Assembly: GCA_964457775.1 (NCBI GenBank)
Contig: CAYWEW010000005.1
Span: 5,398-69,397, forward strand
DNA length: 64,000 nucleotides
Direction of reading: 5' to 3'
DNA from: an uncultured Candidatus Saccharibacteria bacterium
GTDB lineage: Bacteria > Patescibacteriota > Minisyncoccia > Phycocordibacterales > UBA5272
The position numbers were made by a program, and so were the translations under genes. Shown piece by piece: positions 1-51,833 of this stretch. The notes below the pieces were generated by a model. The model did no database searches, was not told where the DNA came from, and worked only from the letters and a program-made list of their open reading frames with translations. Position 1 is the first letter of the stretch. Each line of letters begins with the position of its first letter.

Positions 1-164
1 ACACTGTAAATTTTAGTAAATTGAGTTAGTGGGATATCATGTACCGCCATTCAAAATGATTAAATGATAAATAAATTTTAATACTAAATTAGTAATTAAT
101 TTAAAATTAAGACTTATTCACTTTTTTTATTTATAAAACAGTGATGATAAGGTATAATTAATTA

Positions 165-1124
165 ATGAAGAACTCCCTTCAGCAACTAAAAGGAATAACA
201 ATAGCAACCGTATTCTTCTTTGGATTGTTATATGTACAAGCATGGACCGGAGCTCCAGCAGGAACACCACCAGCTAATAACGTAGACGCACCAATAAATG
301 TTGGTGTTGTAACTCAACTTAAATCAGGAGCTCTCGGTATAGATGGATTATTTAGATCATATGGAAGTGCTATTTTTGACGGAAGTGTGAAGATTTCTAC
401 TGGTGCAGGTTCTGGTAAAGTTCTGACTTCCGATGCAGATGGGAATGCTTCATGGCAAACCACTGCACCAGTATCTTCTGGAGGGGGAGGAGGGAGTTCT
501 CCTTATTGTGCTTTTAGTGGGCAGAGTAAGAGTGTTCAGGCTGGAGATAGTCCAAACTTTCAGTTTAAAGTCGCTACCTGTGCAATGAGTGTTGATTCTT
601 CTGGATTTCAAACAATAACTGTTTCTGGAGGTAACATAGACTTTACAAAGTGTTCAGAAACGCGGAATAATCAAGACTCCTTAAGTTGCTCTTTTACATC
701 AATGTATGACACACAAGCAAGTGCAAACGTGTCTTTTGATAGAAACACTGGTGTTATGACATGTGTATACTCTGATCCGTCTGGTGGTGGTACGCATACA
801 AATAATTTTACTTTTACAAAAGATCAAAGTAAGTGTGCTGGAGCCGGTTCGGCAGCTGAGACTGATCCAACGGTACTTACAAGTGTAAAGGATGGAGTGA
901 GTTGGAGTGAGATAACTGGCACACCATCAGTTGCGGTGAAGGGTAGTGTTCTTGGTGGATGTACCGGAGGAACAGATTGTTGGGGACAAATAAACCCGCC
1001 TAATTATCCTAATAGATGTCCTGCAGGGTCGACAGCACGAACTACTGGAACTGTTGATAATGGTATGGGGGGTTCAGACCAACCTGGTGGATTTCTTACT
1101 GTTTTTCTTTGTATAAAAAATTAA
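165..1124 (+). CDS. Secreted/surface protein, paralog A of a variable family (conserved N-terminal module, Cys-rich C-terminus)
   Basis: N-terminal hydrophobic anchor then AWTGAPAGTPPANNVDAPINVGVVTQLKSGALGIDGLFRSYGSAIFDG.VKISTG..GK.LTSDA.GNASW, shared about 80-90% with the ORFs at 40714 and 41564. The C-terminal half is unrelated and has more than 15 Cys. A -10 GGTATAAT lies 6 nt before the ATG (leaderless). Confidence 0.6.
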   Translation: MKNSLQQLKGITIATVFFFGLLYVQAWTGAPAGTPPANNVDAPINVGVVTQLKSGALGIDGLFRSYGSAIFDGSVKISTGAGSGKVLTSDADGNASWQTTAPVSSGGGGGSSPYCAFSGQSKSVQAGDSPNFQFKVATCAMSVDSSGFQTITVSGGNIDFTKCSETRNNQDSLSCSFTSMYDTQASANVSFDRNTGVMTCVYSDPSGGGTHTNNFTFTKDQSKCAGAGSAAETDPTVLTSVKDGVSWSEITGTPSVAVKGSVLGGCTGGTDCWGQINPPNYPNRCPAGSTARTTGTVDNGMGGSDQPGGFLTVFLCIKN

Positions 1125-1133
1125 TATTATGAA

Positions 1134-1220
1134 ACACTTACACAAACACCTCAAAGGAATAGCAATATCAACACTGTCCTTCTTTGGATTGTTATATGTT
1201 AATATTTCAAAATAATTTTC
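1134..1220 (+). pseudogene. Orphan 5' fragment (28 codons) of a family-A-like gene start
   Basis: MKHLHKHLKGIAISTLSFFGLLYVNISK* is clearly homologous at DNA level to the start of the 165..1124 gene (ggaata.caata.caac...ttctttggattgttatatgt) and sits directly after its stop. It then terminates. Confidence 0.4.
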
Positions 1221-1272
1221 TTTGTGCATAACTTAAGACTAGATCATTAATATTAGGGTATAATTAAATCAA

Positions 1273-2790
1273 ATGAAAAAAATTTTTAAAAACAAATCAA
1301 TAAGTATTAAATGGCTACTATCTGGATTGGTCGCAACTTTTACATTAGCTACTGTTTGGGCTTATAGTGTTTCTGGTTTTTTAGGATTTAATGGATACGC
1401 TTGGAGTGATACCATTGGATGGGTTTCCATGTCTTGTAAAACTGGAGGTCCAACAGGAAATGATATATGTGCAACAAATAATTATGGTGTAACTGTTAGT
1501 ACATCCACTGGTAATTTATCTGGTTATGCTTGGAGTGATAATATTGGCTGGATATCATTTAATAGTAGCGATGTATCAGGTTGCCCAGTTTCTCCATGTT
1601 CTCCAAAACTTACATCAACAGGTTTATCTGGTTTTGCAAAAGCATTAGCTGGTGGAACTGCAGAATCTGGTGGATGGGACGGATATATTGATTTGAGTTC
1701 AGTGATTAGAACATCAGAAACAGTATTATCGGGGTATGCTTGGGGAAGTGATGTTGTGGGTTGGCTTGACATGAGCGGAAGCGCAACTGACGGAGTAACT
1801 TTGGTATATGAGCCAACAACAGCCACATTATCGGCAAATCCAACCAGGGTTTCTTATAATGGTACATCTACTCTAACTTGGAATTCAGTTAACTCAACTA
1901 GTTGTACAGCAGGTGGAAATTGGTCAAACCTCACTCCACCTGTAGGAGATGCTTTAAGAGGAAGTGGTGGAACAGGAGTGCTTACTGAGGATCAATTATA
2001 CACATTCCAATGTAACGGTGCAGGAGGAACGTCTACTTTAGCTAGTGCTACAGTCTCTGTTTGTGATTCTGGAACACCGATGTTAAATAATTCAACCTGT
2101 CACGATGTTTCAAATTCAGTAACTAACACTTTAGGAAACTGTAACTACACTGCAAGTTGTACACTTACTATCACAAGTACTGGTAATGATTCATGTGTTT
2201 TATATAAAGATGGTGTAGCTACATCAGACTCAATTTCAGCAAACGGTACAACCTTAGTTAATTTAACTCAAGAGGGTAAATATATAACAAAATGTACTAC
2301 ATTATCTGATGATGGAAAAACATTCCTATCTCAAGCTCCTGTTTCCATTAATTATTCACCATACCCACCTAAACCAATAGTATCTTTAAGAGCCTCCCCG
2401 ACAAATATATCAGTTAACTCACAAACAGTACTTAATTGGACAGTAACATATCCTAATTCAGTACAAGAACATCCAACTAGATCAGCTTGTACTCTAACTG
2501 CTAAACCAGTATGTGCATTAGGAAATTGTAACGCCAGTCAAATATTGGCTTCAACAACCATTAATAATATTATTAAAACTGAAAATACCGACTCAAACGA
2601 TCCAAATGGTAGTAGAAAAATTACATCAGATGCGGTTAATGAAGTAGTTGGTGACCCAACTGTTTGGCAAGCGCGTGGTAAGAAAACATTCATTCTCGAT
2701 AAATCTATGGACTTCATTCTTAGATGTGGAGATGGTGTGAATGAAAGTCAGGGGGTGAGAGTGTTGGTGACTAGTAGTACTGAGGGGTAG
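1273..2790 (+). CDS. Secreted repeat protein (GYAWSDNIGWISF-type repeats plus C-terminal Ig-like domains)
   Basis: Signal anchor. Three repeats: SGYAWSDTIGWVSM, SGYAWSDNIGWISF, SGYAWGSDVVGWLDM. C-terminal segments resemble bacterial Ig-like or PKD-type domains (..TLTWNSVNSTSCTA.., ..VLNWTVTYPNS..). Leaderless GGTATAAT promoter 8 nt before the ATG. Confidence 0.6.
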   Translation: MKKIFKNKSISIKWLLSGLVATFTLATVWAYSVSGFLGFNGYAWSDTIGWVSMSCKTGGPTGNDICATNNYGVTVSTSTGNLSGYAWSDNIGWISFNSSDVSGCPVSPCSPKLTSTGLSGFAKALAGGTAESGGWDGYIDLSSVIRTSETVLSGYAWGSDVVGWLDMSGSATDGVTLVYEPTTATLSANPTRVSYNGTSTLTWNSVNSTSCTAGGNWSNLTPPVGDALRGSGGTGVLTEDQLYTFQCNGAGGTSTLASATVSVCDSGTPMLNNSTCHDVSNSVTNTLGNCNYTASCTLTITSTGNDSCVLYKDGVATSDSISANGTTLVNLTQEGKYITKCTTLSDDGKTFLSQAPVSINYSPYPPKPIVSLRASPTNISVNSQTVLNWTVTYPNSVQEHPTRSACTLTAKPVCALGNCNASQILASTTINNIIKTENTDSNDPNGSRKITSDAVNEVVGDPTVWQARGKKTFILDKSMDFILRCGDGVNESQGVRVLVTSSTEG

Positions 2791-7326: not shown

Positions 7327-7339
7327 TATTTTTAATTAA

Positions 7340-7368
7340 AAAGCGACCACAAAGTGGTCGCTTTTTTA
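7340..7368 (+). terminator. Intrinsic terminator
   Basis: aagcgaccacaaagtggtcgc plus tttttt. Confidence 0.65.
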
Positions 7369-13071: not shown

Positions 13072-13184
13072 TTAGTATTTTTTGATTGATGTATTCAGTA
13101 TTTAATAACATGACAATTAGAGTGTTTTGTGATAGAATAAATCCTATTGTTTTGGTAGTAAAAATAAATTATGCCGTGAGTAGA

Positions 13185-13247
13185 TCGAGAAGCTTGGCTT
13201 CGAAGATGTCAAAAATTAGCAATTTTTTAACCCGGTTGGTAGAATAT
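13185..13247 (+). repeat. Conserved hairpin element upstream of tRNA (copy a)
   Basis: cgagaagcttggcttcgaagatgtcaaaaattagcaattttttaacccggttgg; second copy at 51627..51680 with compensatory base changes in the stem. Confidence 0.55.
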
Positions 13248-13286: not shown

Positions 13287-13362
13287 GCCGCTTTAGCTCA
13301 GTTGGTAGAGCAACGGTTTTGTAAACCGTAGGTCCACAGTTCGAATCTGTGAAGCGGCTCCA
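13287..13362 (+). tRNA. tRNA-Thr (anticodon UGU)
   Basis: Acceptor GCCGCTT/AAGCGGC, D-arm GCTCAGTTGGTAGAGC, anticodon loop ttTGTaa, T-arm GGTCCACAGTTCGAATCTGTG, CCA encoded. Confidence 0.8.
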
Positions 13363-33727: not shown

Positions 33728-33815
33728 GGAGAGGTGGCAGAGCGGTTTAACGCACTACCTTGGAAAGGTAGCAACTGGGTAACCGGTTCGGGGGTTCGAA
33801 TCCCCCCCTCTCCGC
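33728..33815 (+). tRNA. tRNA-Ser (anticodon GGA), no encoded CCA
   Basis: Acceptor GGAGAGG/CCTCTCC, anticodon loop ttGGAaa, long variable arm, T-arm GGGGGTTCGAATCCCCC. Confidence 0.85.
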
Positions 33816-33857
33816 AAAATAAAAAAACTAAAGCTTTTGCCTTAGTTTTTTATTTTA

Positions 33858-34150
33858 CGGAGAGGGAGAAAGTGACCTGCGTCACTTTCATGGGGATTCG
33901 AATAGGGGTCGCGAATCTACTTCGAGCAAAGCGAGGCAGATTTGTGACCGAATCCCTCACCCCTCCGCTTTGAAAATAAATTAACTCACTTTTTAAGTGA
34001 GTTAATTTATTTTGCGGTGAGGGAGAAAACCAACCGCTTGGTTTTCGTGGGGATTCGAATAGGCGAATCAGCAGATTCGGTTATTGGAACTAGCGAAACC
34101 CATTCTGACGAGCTTGCGAGGAGGGGTTTTGTGACCGAATCCCCATACTC
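33858..34150 (+). repeat. Two tandem degenerate tRNA-Ser-like units separated by a perfect palindrome
   Basis: Unit A 33858-33968 and unit B 34015-34150 each start cgg(a/t)gagggagaaa plus a hairpin, contain ggggattcgaatagg ... ttttgtgaccgaatccc and end with ..cccctccg or ..ccccatactc. The palindrome is 33972-34014. Confidence 0.5.
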
Positions 34151-40369: not shown

Positions 40370-40573
40370 GTGCCAAAAAAAGAATTTGATGGTGTGAGAA
40401 AATCTAGAGAAGAGATGGCAAGATTAAATCAAGATAATTCTGCGAAAAGAGTTACTGAACTTAGAAATCAAATAGCAGAGTTACGGAAAAGTTCAATGAT
40501 TGATAGGTACACTGCACTTCAGAATATTTTGAAGTCAAAGATTGCTGAATTCGAAAGAATTACAGGACAATAA
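40370..40573 (+). CDS. Small coiled-coil protein (GTG start)
   Basis: RBS AAAGGAG 7 nt before GTG. Charged, helical 67-aa product. Confidence 0.4.
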   Translation: MPKKEFDGVRKSREEMARLNQDNSAKRVTELRNQIAELRKSSMIDRYTALQNILKSKIAEFERITGQ

Positions 40574-41043
40574 GTCCCACTTCAATAATGTCTTATCCCT
40601 AAAACGCATATTAATACTTATGTTTGAACATAGGTCACAATGTGCGTTTTTTGTTTTATAAATATTTTTGTGTACAATCAACTGTCCAAAGTTCTACAAA
40701 AAGGTATACTTAATTGCATATGAATACAAAGAAAGATTCTTTTAATAAAGCTTCAGTACTAGTTGCTTTAACATTTGTATTAGGAACAATAACATATGCG
40801 TGGACTGGGGCTCCAGAAGGAACACCACCAGCAAATAACGTAGATGCACCAGTGAACGTAGGTGTTGTAACTCAACTTAAATCAGGGGCTCTTGGTATTG
40901 ATGGATTATTTAGGTCATATGGCAGTGCTATTTTTGATGGAGGTGTTAAGATTTCTACTGATTCAGGTCTAGGTAAAATTCTAACAAGCGATGCAGCAGG
41001 TAATGCTTCTTGGACATCAACTTCTTCTTTGGGGATTAGTGGA
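40565..41043 (+). repeat. Tandem duplication unit 1 (promoter plus 5' coding cassette)
   Basis: About 99% identical to 41415..41893 (period 850 bp). Identity decays over about 30 nt, then the 3' parts are unrelated. Confidence 0.85.
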
Positions 41044-41376
41044 GGAAACGGTGGAGTTTCATCATTTGTAGAAGATTCTTACTCTGATCAAACAACAACA
41101 CGTTTGATTGGTTCCACATACACAAACACATTATTAACACCAAGATTTGTTATAGTCACCGCAAATACAATTCCAGGATCTGTTGTTCGAGCAGCTATAT
41201 TTGTTTATGTGAACAATGTTCGAATACAAGTAACACAAGTTACAGATGCGAATTACAACCAAGGGTGGTTACCATCTACGAATTCTGCTTCATTTATAGT
41301 TCCTCCAGGTGCAACGTATCGAGTCGACAGGTCTGTTAGCAATGTGCGTATAGTTTCATGGTATGAATTAAATTAA
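40714..41376 (+). CDS. Secreted/surface protein, paralog B of the variable family
   Basis: Signal anchor plus the conserved module (AWTGAPEGTPPANNVDAPVNVG...GNASW), then a unique C-terminus. Confidence 0.6.
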   Translation: MHMNTKKDSFNKASVLVALTFVLGTITYAWTGAPEGTPPANNVDAPVNVGVVTQLKSGALGIDGLFRSYGSAIFDGGVKISTDSGLGKILTSDAAGNASWTSTSSLGISGGNGGVSSFVEDSYSDQTTTRLIGSTYTNTLLTPRFVIVTANTIPGSVVRAAIFVYVNNVRIQVTQVTDANYNQGWLPSTNSASFIVPPGATYRVDRSVSNVRIVSWYELN

Positions 41377-41414
41377 TATTTAAAACATTAGTAATTTTTC
41401 CTAATCAAGTTGTA

Positions 41415-41893
41415 GGACAATAATCCCCACTTCAATAATGTCTTATCCCTAAAACGCATATTAATACTTATGTTTGAACATAGGTCACAATGTGCGTTTT
41501 TTGTTTTATAAATATTTTTGTGTACAATCAACTGTCCAAAGTTCTACAAAAAGGTATACTTAATTGCATATGAATACAAAGAAAGATTCTTTTAATAAAG
41601 CTTCAGTACTAGTTGCTTTAACATTTGTATTAGGAACAATAACATATGCGTGGACTGGGGCTCCAGAAGGAACACCACCAGCAAATAACGTAGATGCACC
41701 AGTGAACGTAGGTGTTGTAACTCAACTTAAATCAGGGGCTCTTGGTATTGATGGATTATTTAGGTCATATGGCAGTGCTATTTTTGATGGAGGTGTTAAG
41801 ATTTCTACTGGTTCAGGTCTAGGTAAAATTCTAACAAGCGATGCAGCAGGTAATGCTTCTTGGACGTCCACTTCTTCACTGGGTATTAGTGGA
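41415..41893 (+). repeat. Tandem duplication unit 2
   Basis: See unit 1. Confidence 0.85.
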
Positions 41894-42343
41894 GTTGGTG
41901 ACGTCACATCAATTACGGGTGGCGCCTGTGCGGTTGGGCAAGTAGTTCAGTCAATTAGTGCAACAGGGACTGTAACTTGTGGTGTTGATGCTGGAGGGGG
42001 TACAGGGTTTTCTGGAATACTGAGACCGCTTGAGGGAAAGGAGATAACTTGTAACATAACGCAGGGTGGCGCTGTAGCTGGAAGGGGATATGGGAAAGTT
42101 GAGGGAGGTGTATTTAAAGCGAGAGTTGTATGGGCTAGTATTGCGTATAGACCATATGATTCTGGATGGAAATCTGGTAATTCTATGGGTGTACAAGCAA
42201 ATTTAGTTAGCGCAACATACGGACATGTAAATGTTGGATTAAGTGGAGCAACTTGTACAGGATACACATCTAGTGGCGGGGGTGACAATGCTTCACTTGA
42301 TCAAATCCCAGAGTCAACATCTGTTCCTTGGCCAAATTTTTAA
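41564..42343 (+). CDS. Secreted/surface protein, paralog C of the variable family
   Basis: First about 110 aa essentially identical to paralog B. The C-terminus is Gly/Cys-containing and unique. Confidence 0.6.
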   Translation: MHMNTKKDSFNKASVLVALTFVLGTITYAWTGAPEGTPPANNVDAPVNVGVVTQLKSGALGIDGLFRSYGSAIFDGGVKISTGSGLGKILTSDAAGNASWTSTSSLGISGVGDVTSITGGACAVGQVVQSISATGTVTCGVDAGGGTGFSGILRPLEGKEITCNITQGGAVAGRGYGKVEGGVFKARVVWASIAYRPYDSGWKSGNSMGVQANLVSATYGHVNVGLSGATCTGYTSSGGGDNASLDQIPESTSVPWPNF

Positions 42344-44443: not shown

Positions 44444-44581
44444 ATTATCCATTTACGTTGTTCGAGCAGTTTGACTGCGAAGATGTCCGAAACTACCAAG
44501 TGTAGGACATGAATCGATTAACTGGAGCAATTTCTGACTTTCGGGCTCATACATACAGTTACATACGAATACAATTCGATT

Positions 44582-45580: not shown

Positions 45581-45624
45581 GAATTAAAAGAGCGACACCT
45601 TTCGGTGTCGCTCTTTTATCTTTT

Positions 45625-45960
45625 GTTCTATCTATAAGCCGAATTCTGTCCATGTGGTTACCCACATTGTGTAATCATGTATCTGGGCGATATTTTACAA
45701 TACCGCTCTAGCGACACTCTCATATTGCTATGAGCACGGTCTTGCACACACGTAAGGATTTAGCCGTTTCAATTTTATCTTTCGATAAACATATTCCCGA
45801 AGGAACCCTAGTCTTTCGACATTGGCGTCACTGCTCGCACCTCTATGATTGCTCACGACGGGTGTTACCCGCTACGATCACTAATTTAAAAGTAATGTGT
45901 TCGGACTTTCCTCTCTCGGTGGTAGTATTTCAACCACAAAGAGCGATTACCCAGTAGAAC
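45625..45960 (-). ncRNA. rnpB: RNase P RNA (bacterial type A-like, reduced)
   Basis: Minus strand reads GAGGAAAGTCCGAACAC (P4), GGGTAACACCCG, GGTGCGAGCAGTGACGCC and 3' ACAGAATTCGGCTTATAG (E. coli-like ACAGAACCCGGCTTATCG). P1 is GTTCTAC/ATAGAAC. A terminator hairpin 45587-45620 lies downstream. Confidence 0.75.
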
Positions 45961-46053
45961 AAAAAAATAATACAACATATTTTACAAAAAAGCAAGTATA
46001 GATACAATTCCACGTGCTTTTATCTGCATTTTTTGTTAGTATGGAGGGATATT

Positions 46054-51612: not shown

Positions 51613-51632
51613 CATGCTTGGTTAGCTCGAGA
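51613..51632 (+). repeat. Duplicated 5' fragment of tRNA-Phe (acceptor plus D-arm)
   Basis: atgcttggttagctcgag vs the tRNA-Phe 5' end atgcttggatagctcag. Confidence 0.55.
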
Positions 51633-51680
51633 AGCTTGGCTTCGAGGATGTCAAAAGTTAGTAAACTTTTGACCCGGTTG
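51627..51680 (+). repeat. Conserved hairpin element upstream of tRNA (copy b)
   Basis: cgagaagcttggcttcgaggatgtcaaaagttagtaaacttttgacccggttg. Confidence 0.55.
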
Positions 51681-51760: not shown

Positions 51761-51833
51761 GCTTGGATAGCTCAGTTGGTAGAGCGCTTCCCTGAAGAGG
51801 AATAGGTCCCCAGTTCGAGCCTGGGTCCAAGCA
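51761..51833 (+). tRNA. tRNA-Phe (anticodon GAA), no encoded CCA
   Basis: GCTTGGATAGCTCAGTTGGTAGAGC ... loop ctGAAga ... CCCAGTTCGAGCCTGGG TCCAAGC A. Extended -10 TGGTATAAT ends 9 nt upstream. Confidence 0.85.

Follow-up and report, generated by a model that had tools for sequence, protein, structure and literature searches.

Fibre proteins which join a conserved N-terminal part to an exchangeable tip are the closest described counterparts of the proteins studied here. The MAT fibres of Bdellovibrio bacteriovorus, which lives on other bacteria, consist of a signal peptide, a conserved N-terminal domain, fibre repeats and a diverse, exchangeable tip, and are encoded by many paralogues per genome, with the S74-type MATs ending in a Peptidase_S74 chaperone (Caulton et al. 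2024, PMC10769870). Phage tail fibres (of the T4 gp37/gp38 type and with Peptidase_S74) have a conserved N-terminal attachment part and a variable C-terminal tip, and show mosaic evolution by recombination at conserved junctions. At the level of gene arrays, the contraction of tandem arrays in bacterial surface-protein families leaves a short 5' piece of a paralogue beside an intact copy, with the homology ending at a module boundary. The cultivated bacteria of the Candidate Phyla Radiation (CPR) are all obligate episymbionts on other microbes, and their host recognition is largely unknown, with type IV pili being the system studied so far (PMC12206443, PMC9894109).

We analysed a 64,000-nucleotide stretch of DNA (referred to as the window) which contains three members of a secreted protein family, here called gene1, geneA and geneB, and a 28-codon orphan reading frame, the stub, directly behind gene1. 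The family resembles the MAT fibres in the order of its parts (signal peptide, conserved N-terminal part, fibre repeat, exchangeable tip), in having many paralogues per genome, in having relatives of its fibre unit which end in Peptidase_S74, and in the life on other bacteria that is likewise suggested for the organism studied here. The differences are that the window proteins have 218-319 aa, compared with about 1,000 aa for the MATs (1,031 residues in Bd2133), contain a single fibre unit and no S74 domain, and have a leader which is itself conserved in the family. As with the phage tail fibres, the genes are mosaics recombined at conserved junctions, and the tips of geneA and of the relative P0012 match tail-fibre families; the family genes are, however, chromosomal, lie among housekeeping genes and encode Sec-type leaders.

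Results and discussion

Gene1 and the family to which it belongs

The features at the left end of the window and at the tandem locus are as follows.

1 to 164, forward strand: AT-rich region 5' of gene1, with a -10-like element TAAGGTATAATTAA at about 148-161 and TTTATA-17-TATAAT at 130-158
165 to 1124, forward strand: gene1, an open reading frame of 319 aa with a 100% match to P0001, predicted secreted family member
165 to 242, forward strand: L1-type leader of gene1, a predicted signal peptide with n-region MKNSLQQLK, h-region GITIATVFFFGLLYV and predicted cleavage between VQA and WTG
240 to 464, forward strand: N-module, comprising the cap WTGAPxGTPPANNVDAPINVG and one fibre repeat unit ending in GKVLTSDAxGNASW
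40720 to 41376, forward strand: geneA, with an L2-type leader, the same N-module as gene1 and a tail-fibre-like tip
41570 to 42343, forward strand: geneB, with an L2-type leader, the same N-module as gene1 and a different tip

The gene which the earlier note had placed at 165-1124 proved to be a genuine member of the family. Its product consists, in this order, of the leader, the N-module, a central beta domain, an ETDP linker and a Cys-containing CIKN tip, and from its sequence the leader would be a signal peptide cleaved after VQA. This L1-type leader has the consensus MKNxxQQLKGIxIATVFFxGLLYVQA and is also found in P0008, P0012, P0032 and P0033. A very Cys-rich and unique C-terminus had been claimed for the protein, but the 319 aa include 10 Cys, the central domain is found with 90-100% identity in P0003 and P0004 as well, and the CIKN end recurs in P0002 and P0005. 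The AF2 model of gene1 has a mean pLDDT of 70.7, with values of 79-97 for residues 110-220, which appear in it as a confidently modelled beta domain, and of only 49-76 for the N-module.

Searches with known families gave little. There was no usable match to Pfam or NCBIfam for gene1, geneA or geneB, and for gene1 nothing below E 0.01 in PHROGs (best E 0.025, unknown function), chance matches to CD5 only (E 0.8) in a sequence-profile search of the PDB, and no match to cultured phages using tblastn. A Foldseek search of its AF2 model against PDB and BFVD had no hit at E<=0.001, the best being nitrobindin-like and PCNA-like barrels at E ~0.1. The model for the N-terminal domain of the MATs (NF053851 Bdello_MAT_N, a beta-rich domain of ~130 aa) did not match gene1, geneA or geneB at E<=1, and we therefore do not place the family in the MAT family; among the sequences searched only the distant relative P0026 matched this model (E 0.021; 14.6 bits, where the cut-off is 60).

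A profile of the N-terminal part retrieved 3486 cluster representatives (taken at 50% identity) at E<=1e-3, and 575 at E<=1e-10. The cap W-T-x-P...PPxxNVxAPINV...QxKxGxL is located right after the leader in 117 of the 170 retrieved members, the median length being 245 aa, and this location is also seen in gene1 (L1-type leader) and in geneA and geneB (both L2), each of which has one fibre repeat unit, GK(V/I)LTSDAxGNASW. The second half of the module (...GxGxGKVLTSDAxGNASW) is a repeat unit of long proteins, in which as many as 11 stretches match it. The long relatives P0037 and P0051 end in Peptidase_S74, a domain which was found in none of the window genes, and in P0037 there is in addition a weak match to the T9SS sorting domain that stays below the Pfam cut-off. 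The matches of P0054 and P0036 to Peptidase_G2 lie at this cut-off or slightly under it, and P0036 begins with the same cap as the family. The tip of geneA matches phrog_26525, annotated as 'tail fiber protein', at E 2.5e-6; it also matches tail fibres of two Edwardsiella phages, MSW-3 (E 4e-4) and Edno5, with 32-33% identity and E-values from 4e-4 to 1e-3, and the tip of P0012 matches PF05268 GP38 and tail-fibre PHROGs. These parts suggest that the family consists of short secreted fibre-like proteins, with a conserved leader, an N-cap, a fibre repeat, optional middle domains and a variable tip, and the putative role as fibre or adhesin is deduced from distant similarity of individual parts.

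The N-module was absent from cultured phages, and its profile found nothing in the IMG/VR contigs. The neighbours of the family genes are housekeeping and envelope genes (an epimerase, sugar transferases, ribosomal proteins L25 and L31), and therefore these are not prophage genes. A scan of the JGI metagenomes for the family found nothing, and a scan of GTDB genomes gave only three distant loci, in Saccharibacteria or unclassified MAGs. Type IV pilins and pseudopilins were also considered and rejected: the leaders end in ...YVQA, ...TYA or ...LNA directly before WTG, and reading the sequences revealed no GF(T/S)LIE motif with cleavage after the G.

A leader fragment between gene1 and g505

The region downstream of gene1 is organised as follows.

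1125 to 1128, forward strand: spacer TATT, 4 nt from the gene1 stop to the stub ATG, a tight tandem-type junction
1129 to 1215, forward strand: orphan open reading frame of 28 codons, MKHLHKHLKGIAISTLSFFGLLYVNISK followed by a stop; it consists of MKHLHKHLKGIAISTLSFFGLLYV plus NISK and the stop, the last four codons coming from unrelated spacer
1129 to 1200, forward strand: L1-leader homology island, 72 nt (codons 1-24), with the n- and h-regions only and without cleavage site or mature protein
1202 to 1272, forward strand: conserved upstream (promoter) region of g505, homologous to positions 747-818 of locus L019, with a -10-like element TAGGGTATAATTAA; right edge of the putative scar
1273 to 2790, forward strand: g505, a 505-aa secreted protein with four GYAWSDxIGWISF repeats, starting 57 nt past the orphan reading frame

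The 28-codon remnant reported just after the gene1 stop does exist, 4 nt downstream, although its coordinates are 1129-1215 and not 1134-1220. Without gaps, positions 1129-1199 are identical to 165-235 at 55 of 71 nt (77%), a match that a repeat search found independently, and blastn aligned the stub with the gene1 leader at 41/47 nt (87%, E 1e-7 within the window). The final 21 nt of the homology, CTTCTTTGGATTGTTATATGT, are exact between the stub and gene1, and over nt 51-72 the two agree at 21 of 22 nt with the same codons, whereas the orthologous leaders of L005 and L017 use other codons for almost the same residues (15/22 and 17/22). The n-region of the stub is more diverged from gene1 (14/24), and its leader, MKHLHKHLKG..., departs from the QQLKG motif that is invariant in all six intact L1-type leaders seen. 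No further match to the stub was found by blastn across the 64 kb. With the leader of the tandem pair, MNTKKDSFNKASVLVALTFVLGTITYA (L2 type), there is no DNA similarity (best local score 13, 9 nt), and comparison with the starts of the full-length paralogues thus shows homology to the L1-type start of gene1 and not to the L2-type starts of geneA and geneB. The proposal that the stub encodes the start of the family is correct in so far as it matches the leader of gene1; it does not match a start common to the family, nor that of the tandem pair.

Signal peptides are alike in composition, the genome is AT-rich, and the Logan contigs break within the repeated N-module, at window position 305, all of which could be taken to favour a chance likeness or an assembly artefact at a repeat. 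This reading is scarcely credible and is effectively refuted: the match is DNA-specific (E 1e-7, a 21-nt exact run, the same choice of codons) and goes beyond the generic composition of signal peptides, and it is not found with the leader of the tandem pair. The stub and both its flanks are also contiguous in L009, L010 and L011, three independent Logan assemblies of different runs, with 100% identity, and the stub is therefore not an artefact of assembly. All assemblies with the stub are from one sample series, and it can thus be called fixed in that population.

Both edges of the stub are defined. In the alignment with gene1, codon 24 (...LLYV) is the last homologous one, two codons ahead of the AWTG with which the conserved module opens and just 5' of the predicted signal-peptidase site. 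At the left edge, the junction CIKN-stop-TATT-ATG resembles the junction of two intact members in L016, CIKN-stop-11 nt-ATG, and no terminator-like site was found between gene1 and the stub. At the right edge, positions 1202-1282 are homologous to the ~72 nt that directly precede the L019 homologue of g505 (score 43, reached by 0/500 shuffles); this was the sole significant match, with the comparisons of the spacer in the stub region with L005 and L017 being no better than shuffles. The stub therefore amounts to a 72-nt leader island between the end of a gene and a promoter region. It ends before the N-cap, and hence we treat it as a fragment and not as a member of the family. We consider it likely that the stub is the non-functional scar of a recombination or deletion that affected a family gene.

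The slot upstream of g505 in related genomes

Gene g505 is the conserved downstream partner of a variable family slot. Its homologues have 73%, 56%, 56% and 53% protein identity, and the named ones come from Parcubacteria, Paceibacterota and Kaiserbacteria MAGs. Upstream of these homologues the following genes were found.

L005-L008: one L1-type member, P0008 (183 aa), then 50 nt
L017: P0012 (L1 type, 428 aa, gp38-like tip), a 197-aa gene and P0013 (L2 type, 185 aa)
L019: one L1-type member, its tip different again, followed by 225 nt

The family genes upstream of g505 differ, and the slot is therefore variable in content. The stub is absent from all three syntenic loci (L005-L008, L017 and L019), where there are one or two intact family genes instead, and a pattern scan of 18 loci (L001-L018) and the window for orphan leaders found none besides the stub. 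With its absence from the syntenic loci, its position as the sole orphan leader and its departure from QQLKG, the stub is lineage-specific, and it looks unconstrained.

This distribution bears on whether the 28-codon frame could encode a small membrane peptide with a function of its own, or act as an upstream reading frame whose translation tunes the expression of g505. The frame is intact, its ATG is in the same context as that of gene1, there is no terminator-like site separating it from gene1, and it encodes a plausible transmembrane helix. We regard such a function as improbable: besides being unique to this lineage among the loci compared, the frame takes its last four codons from spacer that is homologous to non-coding DNA in L019, does not keep the conserved QQLKG motif of the leader, and lies upstream of the -10-like element of g505.

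The variability of the slot also allows for the import of a cassette from another tandem array, which would have carried a promoter, gene1 and the initial 72 nt of the gene behind it and have taken the place of the family gene that was resident before g505. The right end would then have been joined illegitimately ~72 nt before g505, and the stub would never have had a body at this position. The presence of a different family gene in the slot of every genome examined is what the replacement of whole cassettes predicts, and where relatives have a 125-aa gene adjoining the family gene, gene1 has at least 164 nt of AT-rich DNA before it. This AT-rich DNA is weakly like the region upstream of g505 in L019, a marginal likeness with a score of 41 that was matched by 10/500 shuffles. 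No donor array was found, however, and a deletion fits the data equally; we consider an import of this kind rather unlikely. The reading we prefer is the scar of a second family gene, the body of which was either deleted or never carried over.

Exchange of modules within the family

The recombination of family genes is directly visible elsewhere. At the tandem locus, a strain represented by L004, in which the flanking DNA is 96-97% identical, has three genes versus two in the window. Two of these are geneA-type copies. Their leader and the 150 nt before it show 100% identity to the window geneA, and their tips 93-100%, but along some 180 nt of the N-module the identity is only 46-76%, and a different type of module is encoded there (WTGPTQTAPNGNVPAPINVGDSTQYK...). 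The replaced patch corresponds to window positions 40809-40954, which is the segment that is 89% identical to gene1, and in the window the N-modules of geneA and geneB are identical. The N-module has thus been swapped between identical flanks.

The proteins are mosaic in blocks as well. P0002, a fourth full-length member located outside the window, on a contig recorded with the length of the source contig, 78,256 nt, and 57% identical to gene1 (its annotated start, MATVFFF..., is inside the leader), matches gene1 at 100% over aa 21-60, with the identity falling to 25-70% across most of the remaining sequence. In P0003 and P0004 an identity of 90-100% to gene1 is confined to aa 121-220, and their ends are unrelated; P0008 has only the leader and part of the module in common with it. 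Among the breakpoints that recur is the leader/AWTG junction, at which the stub breaks off. The module swap in L004 and the mosaicism of the proteins support recombination in the family independently of the stub. The description of the family as actively rearranging is accordingly borne out with regard to recombination, but not with regard to 'actively', as the stub is fixed and shows no differences among the assemblies seen.

The N-module of gene1 recurs at 40798-41022 and 41648-41872 with 84% identity over 225 nt, and 89% over 160-168 nt using blastn. The module is thus shared with the tandem pair, as had been proposed, and the divergence of its DNA that was reported with it is only relative. 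Of the mismatches between the module copies, 22 of 35 are at third codon positions, and they are not adenine-specific; this is the pattern of ordinary purifying selection and not the signature of a diversity-generating retroelement (DGR).

CPR genomes often carry DGRs, and a family with conserved and hypervariable parts, such as this one, could be diversified by a DGR or by a programmed silent-cassette system of the pilE/pilS kind, with the stub as part of the machinery. We think this very improbable, given the pattern of mismatches and the lack of any template/variable repeat pair in the window. In addition, the cassettes of known silent-cassette systems are without 5' ends, whereas the orphan is a 5' end without a body, and it is the only stub found in the loci scanned.

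Formation of the stub

The earlier reading of the stub as the footprint of a broken or recombined copy is supported by the DNA-specific homology, by both of its edges, by its absence from relatives and by the independent module swap. For the recombination or deletion scar that we favour, we infer the following order of events. A second L1-type gene would once have followed gene1 in tight tandem, with a stop, a few nucleotides and an ATG; the tandem ancestor is inferred rather than observed, as no relative was found with an intact second gene that bears the exact leader of the stub (MKHLHKHLKG...). The body of this second gene would have been lost, from about two codons before AWTG to the end of the gene, together with most of the spacer before g505, either by deletion in place or with the truncated piece travelling alongside gene1 in an imported cassette. 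The remaining leader would now run into the promoter region of g505 and stop after four foreign codons, and would be inert. In the family at large, modules would be exchanged by homologous recombination at conserved junctions, and genes would be duplicated and lost in tandem arrays, with the stub as a by-product of this mode of evolution. Taken by itself the stub is an ordinary gene remnant, comparable to those left by the contraction of tandem arrays.

Possible role of the family

By analogy with the known fibres, the protein would be anchored to the cell surface through its conserved N-terminal part and would bind a target with its variable tip. As the organism looks like a Parcubacteria (CPR) symbiont, this target is probably the host cell. 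A tentative and still doubtful extension, for which we see some room, is that the leader/N-cap family forms the host-recognition fibre repertoire of Parcubacteria-type CPR symbionts, as a miniature Sec-exported counterpart of tail and MAT fibres. Tips might then be swapped cassette-wise at the leader/AWTG and GKxLTSDAxGNASW junctions, with the slot upstream of g505 as a dedicated variation locus which leaves scars like the stub. A search of the literature for tail-fibre or adhesin proteins in Patescibacteria found nothing relevant, and the hypervariable PTD-repeat gene of Gracilibacteria (PMC6851277) is a different phenomenon.

The recombining modules are real and the stub is ordinary, and it is as an unannotated, modular fibre family that these proteins are of moderate interest. 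With its 3486 cluster representatives the family is large, yet it is without a Pfam or NCBIfam model, and the genomes in which it occurs have relatives that carry the labels Parcubacteria, Paceibacterota and Saccharibacteria. A modular, recombining repertoire of tips would be a concrete candidate for the determination of host range, with defined junctions for testing, and its conserved association with the g505 repeat protein provides another point of access.

Copy number and module exchange in the family of secreted fibre-like proteins

The tandem locus was compared with its counterpart in a 97%-identical strain (L004):
window 40564-42343, tandem locus of the window
L004 1874-4505, tandem locus of the related strain
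The window carries two genes here and the L004 strain three, and in the geneA copies of the latter the leader and tip are identical, whereas the N-module between them is different. The comparison of the two loci is direct evidence of both copy-number change and module replacement.

A tight tandem was also found at another locus:
L016 152-2064, two full-length family genes with L3 leaders, P0005 and P0010
These genes, separated by 11 nt, each encode 316 aa; their leaders are identical, and their middle domains and tips have diverged.

Within gene1 (165-1124), two independent Logan contigs (L009 and L010) share a start at window 305, a position that falls in the repeated N-module. A break of the assembly graph by an exact repeat located somewhere else in the genome would have this effect; that repeat would perhaps be the gene for P0002, a further full-length member outside the window. 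A third contig, L011, starts at window 1078, close to the end of gene1.

A secreted protein apparently paired with family genes

Downstream of gene1 lies g505, listed here with homologues in other genomes:
window 1273-2790, g505
L005 959-1431, homologue
L017 12762-14294, homologue
L019 809-2344, homologue
The product of g505 is secreted and contains the GYAWSDxIGWISF repeat four times; Pfam and NCBIfam gave no match for it. Named homologues came from Parcubacteria, Paceibacterota and Kaiserbacteria MAGs. In four other genomes a family gene lies immediately upstream of the g505 homologue with outer flanks that are not the same, and g505 and the family gene look like a conserved pair.

RNA genes, palindromes and repeats

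Other features of the window were:
45619-45962 (-), bacterial class A RNase P RNA (Rfam)
2916-2945 and 7338-7367, perfect palindromes of the AAAGAGTGACCACAAAGTGGCCACTCTTTT type, similar to each other
13181-13238 and 51623-51680, 58-nt repeat (88% identity), with a weaker copy at 44458-44515
33849-33906 and 34006-34063, second 58-nt pair (79% identical)
The RNase P RNA scored 107 bits, barely over the Rfam gathering threshold (100), and there are four tRNA genes. The palindromes are probably bidirectional terminators with a common core; both are placed 3' of convergent or terminal genes. The first 58-nt repeat, 5' of two tRNA genes, could be a promoter or processing element common to both. Its two stronger copies are located just upstream of the tRNA genes at 13287-13359 and 51761-51833, respectively. 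The second pair is found just 3' of the tRNA gene at 33728-33814, each copy containing an internal inverted repeat.
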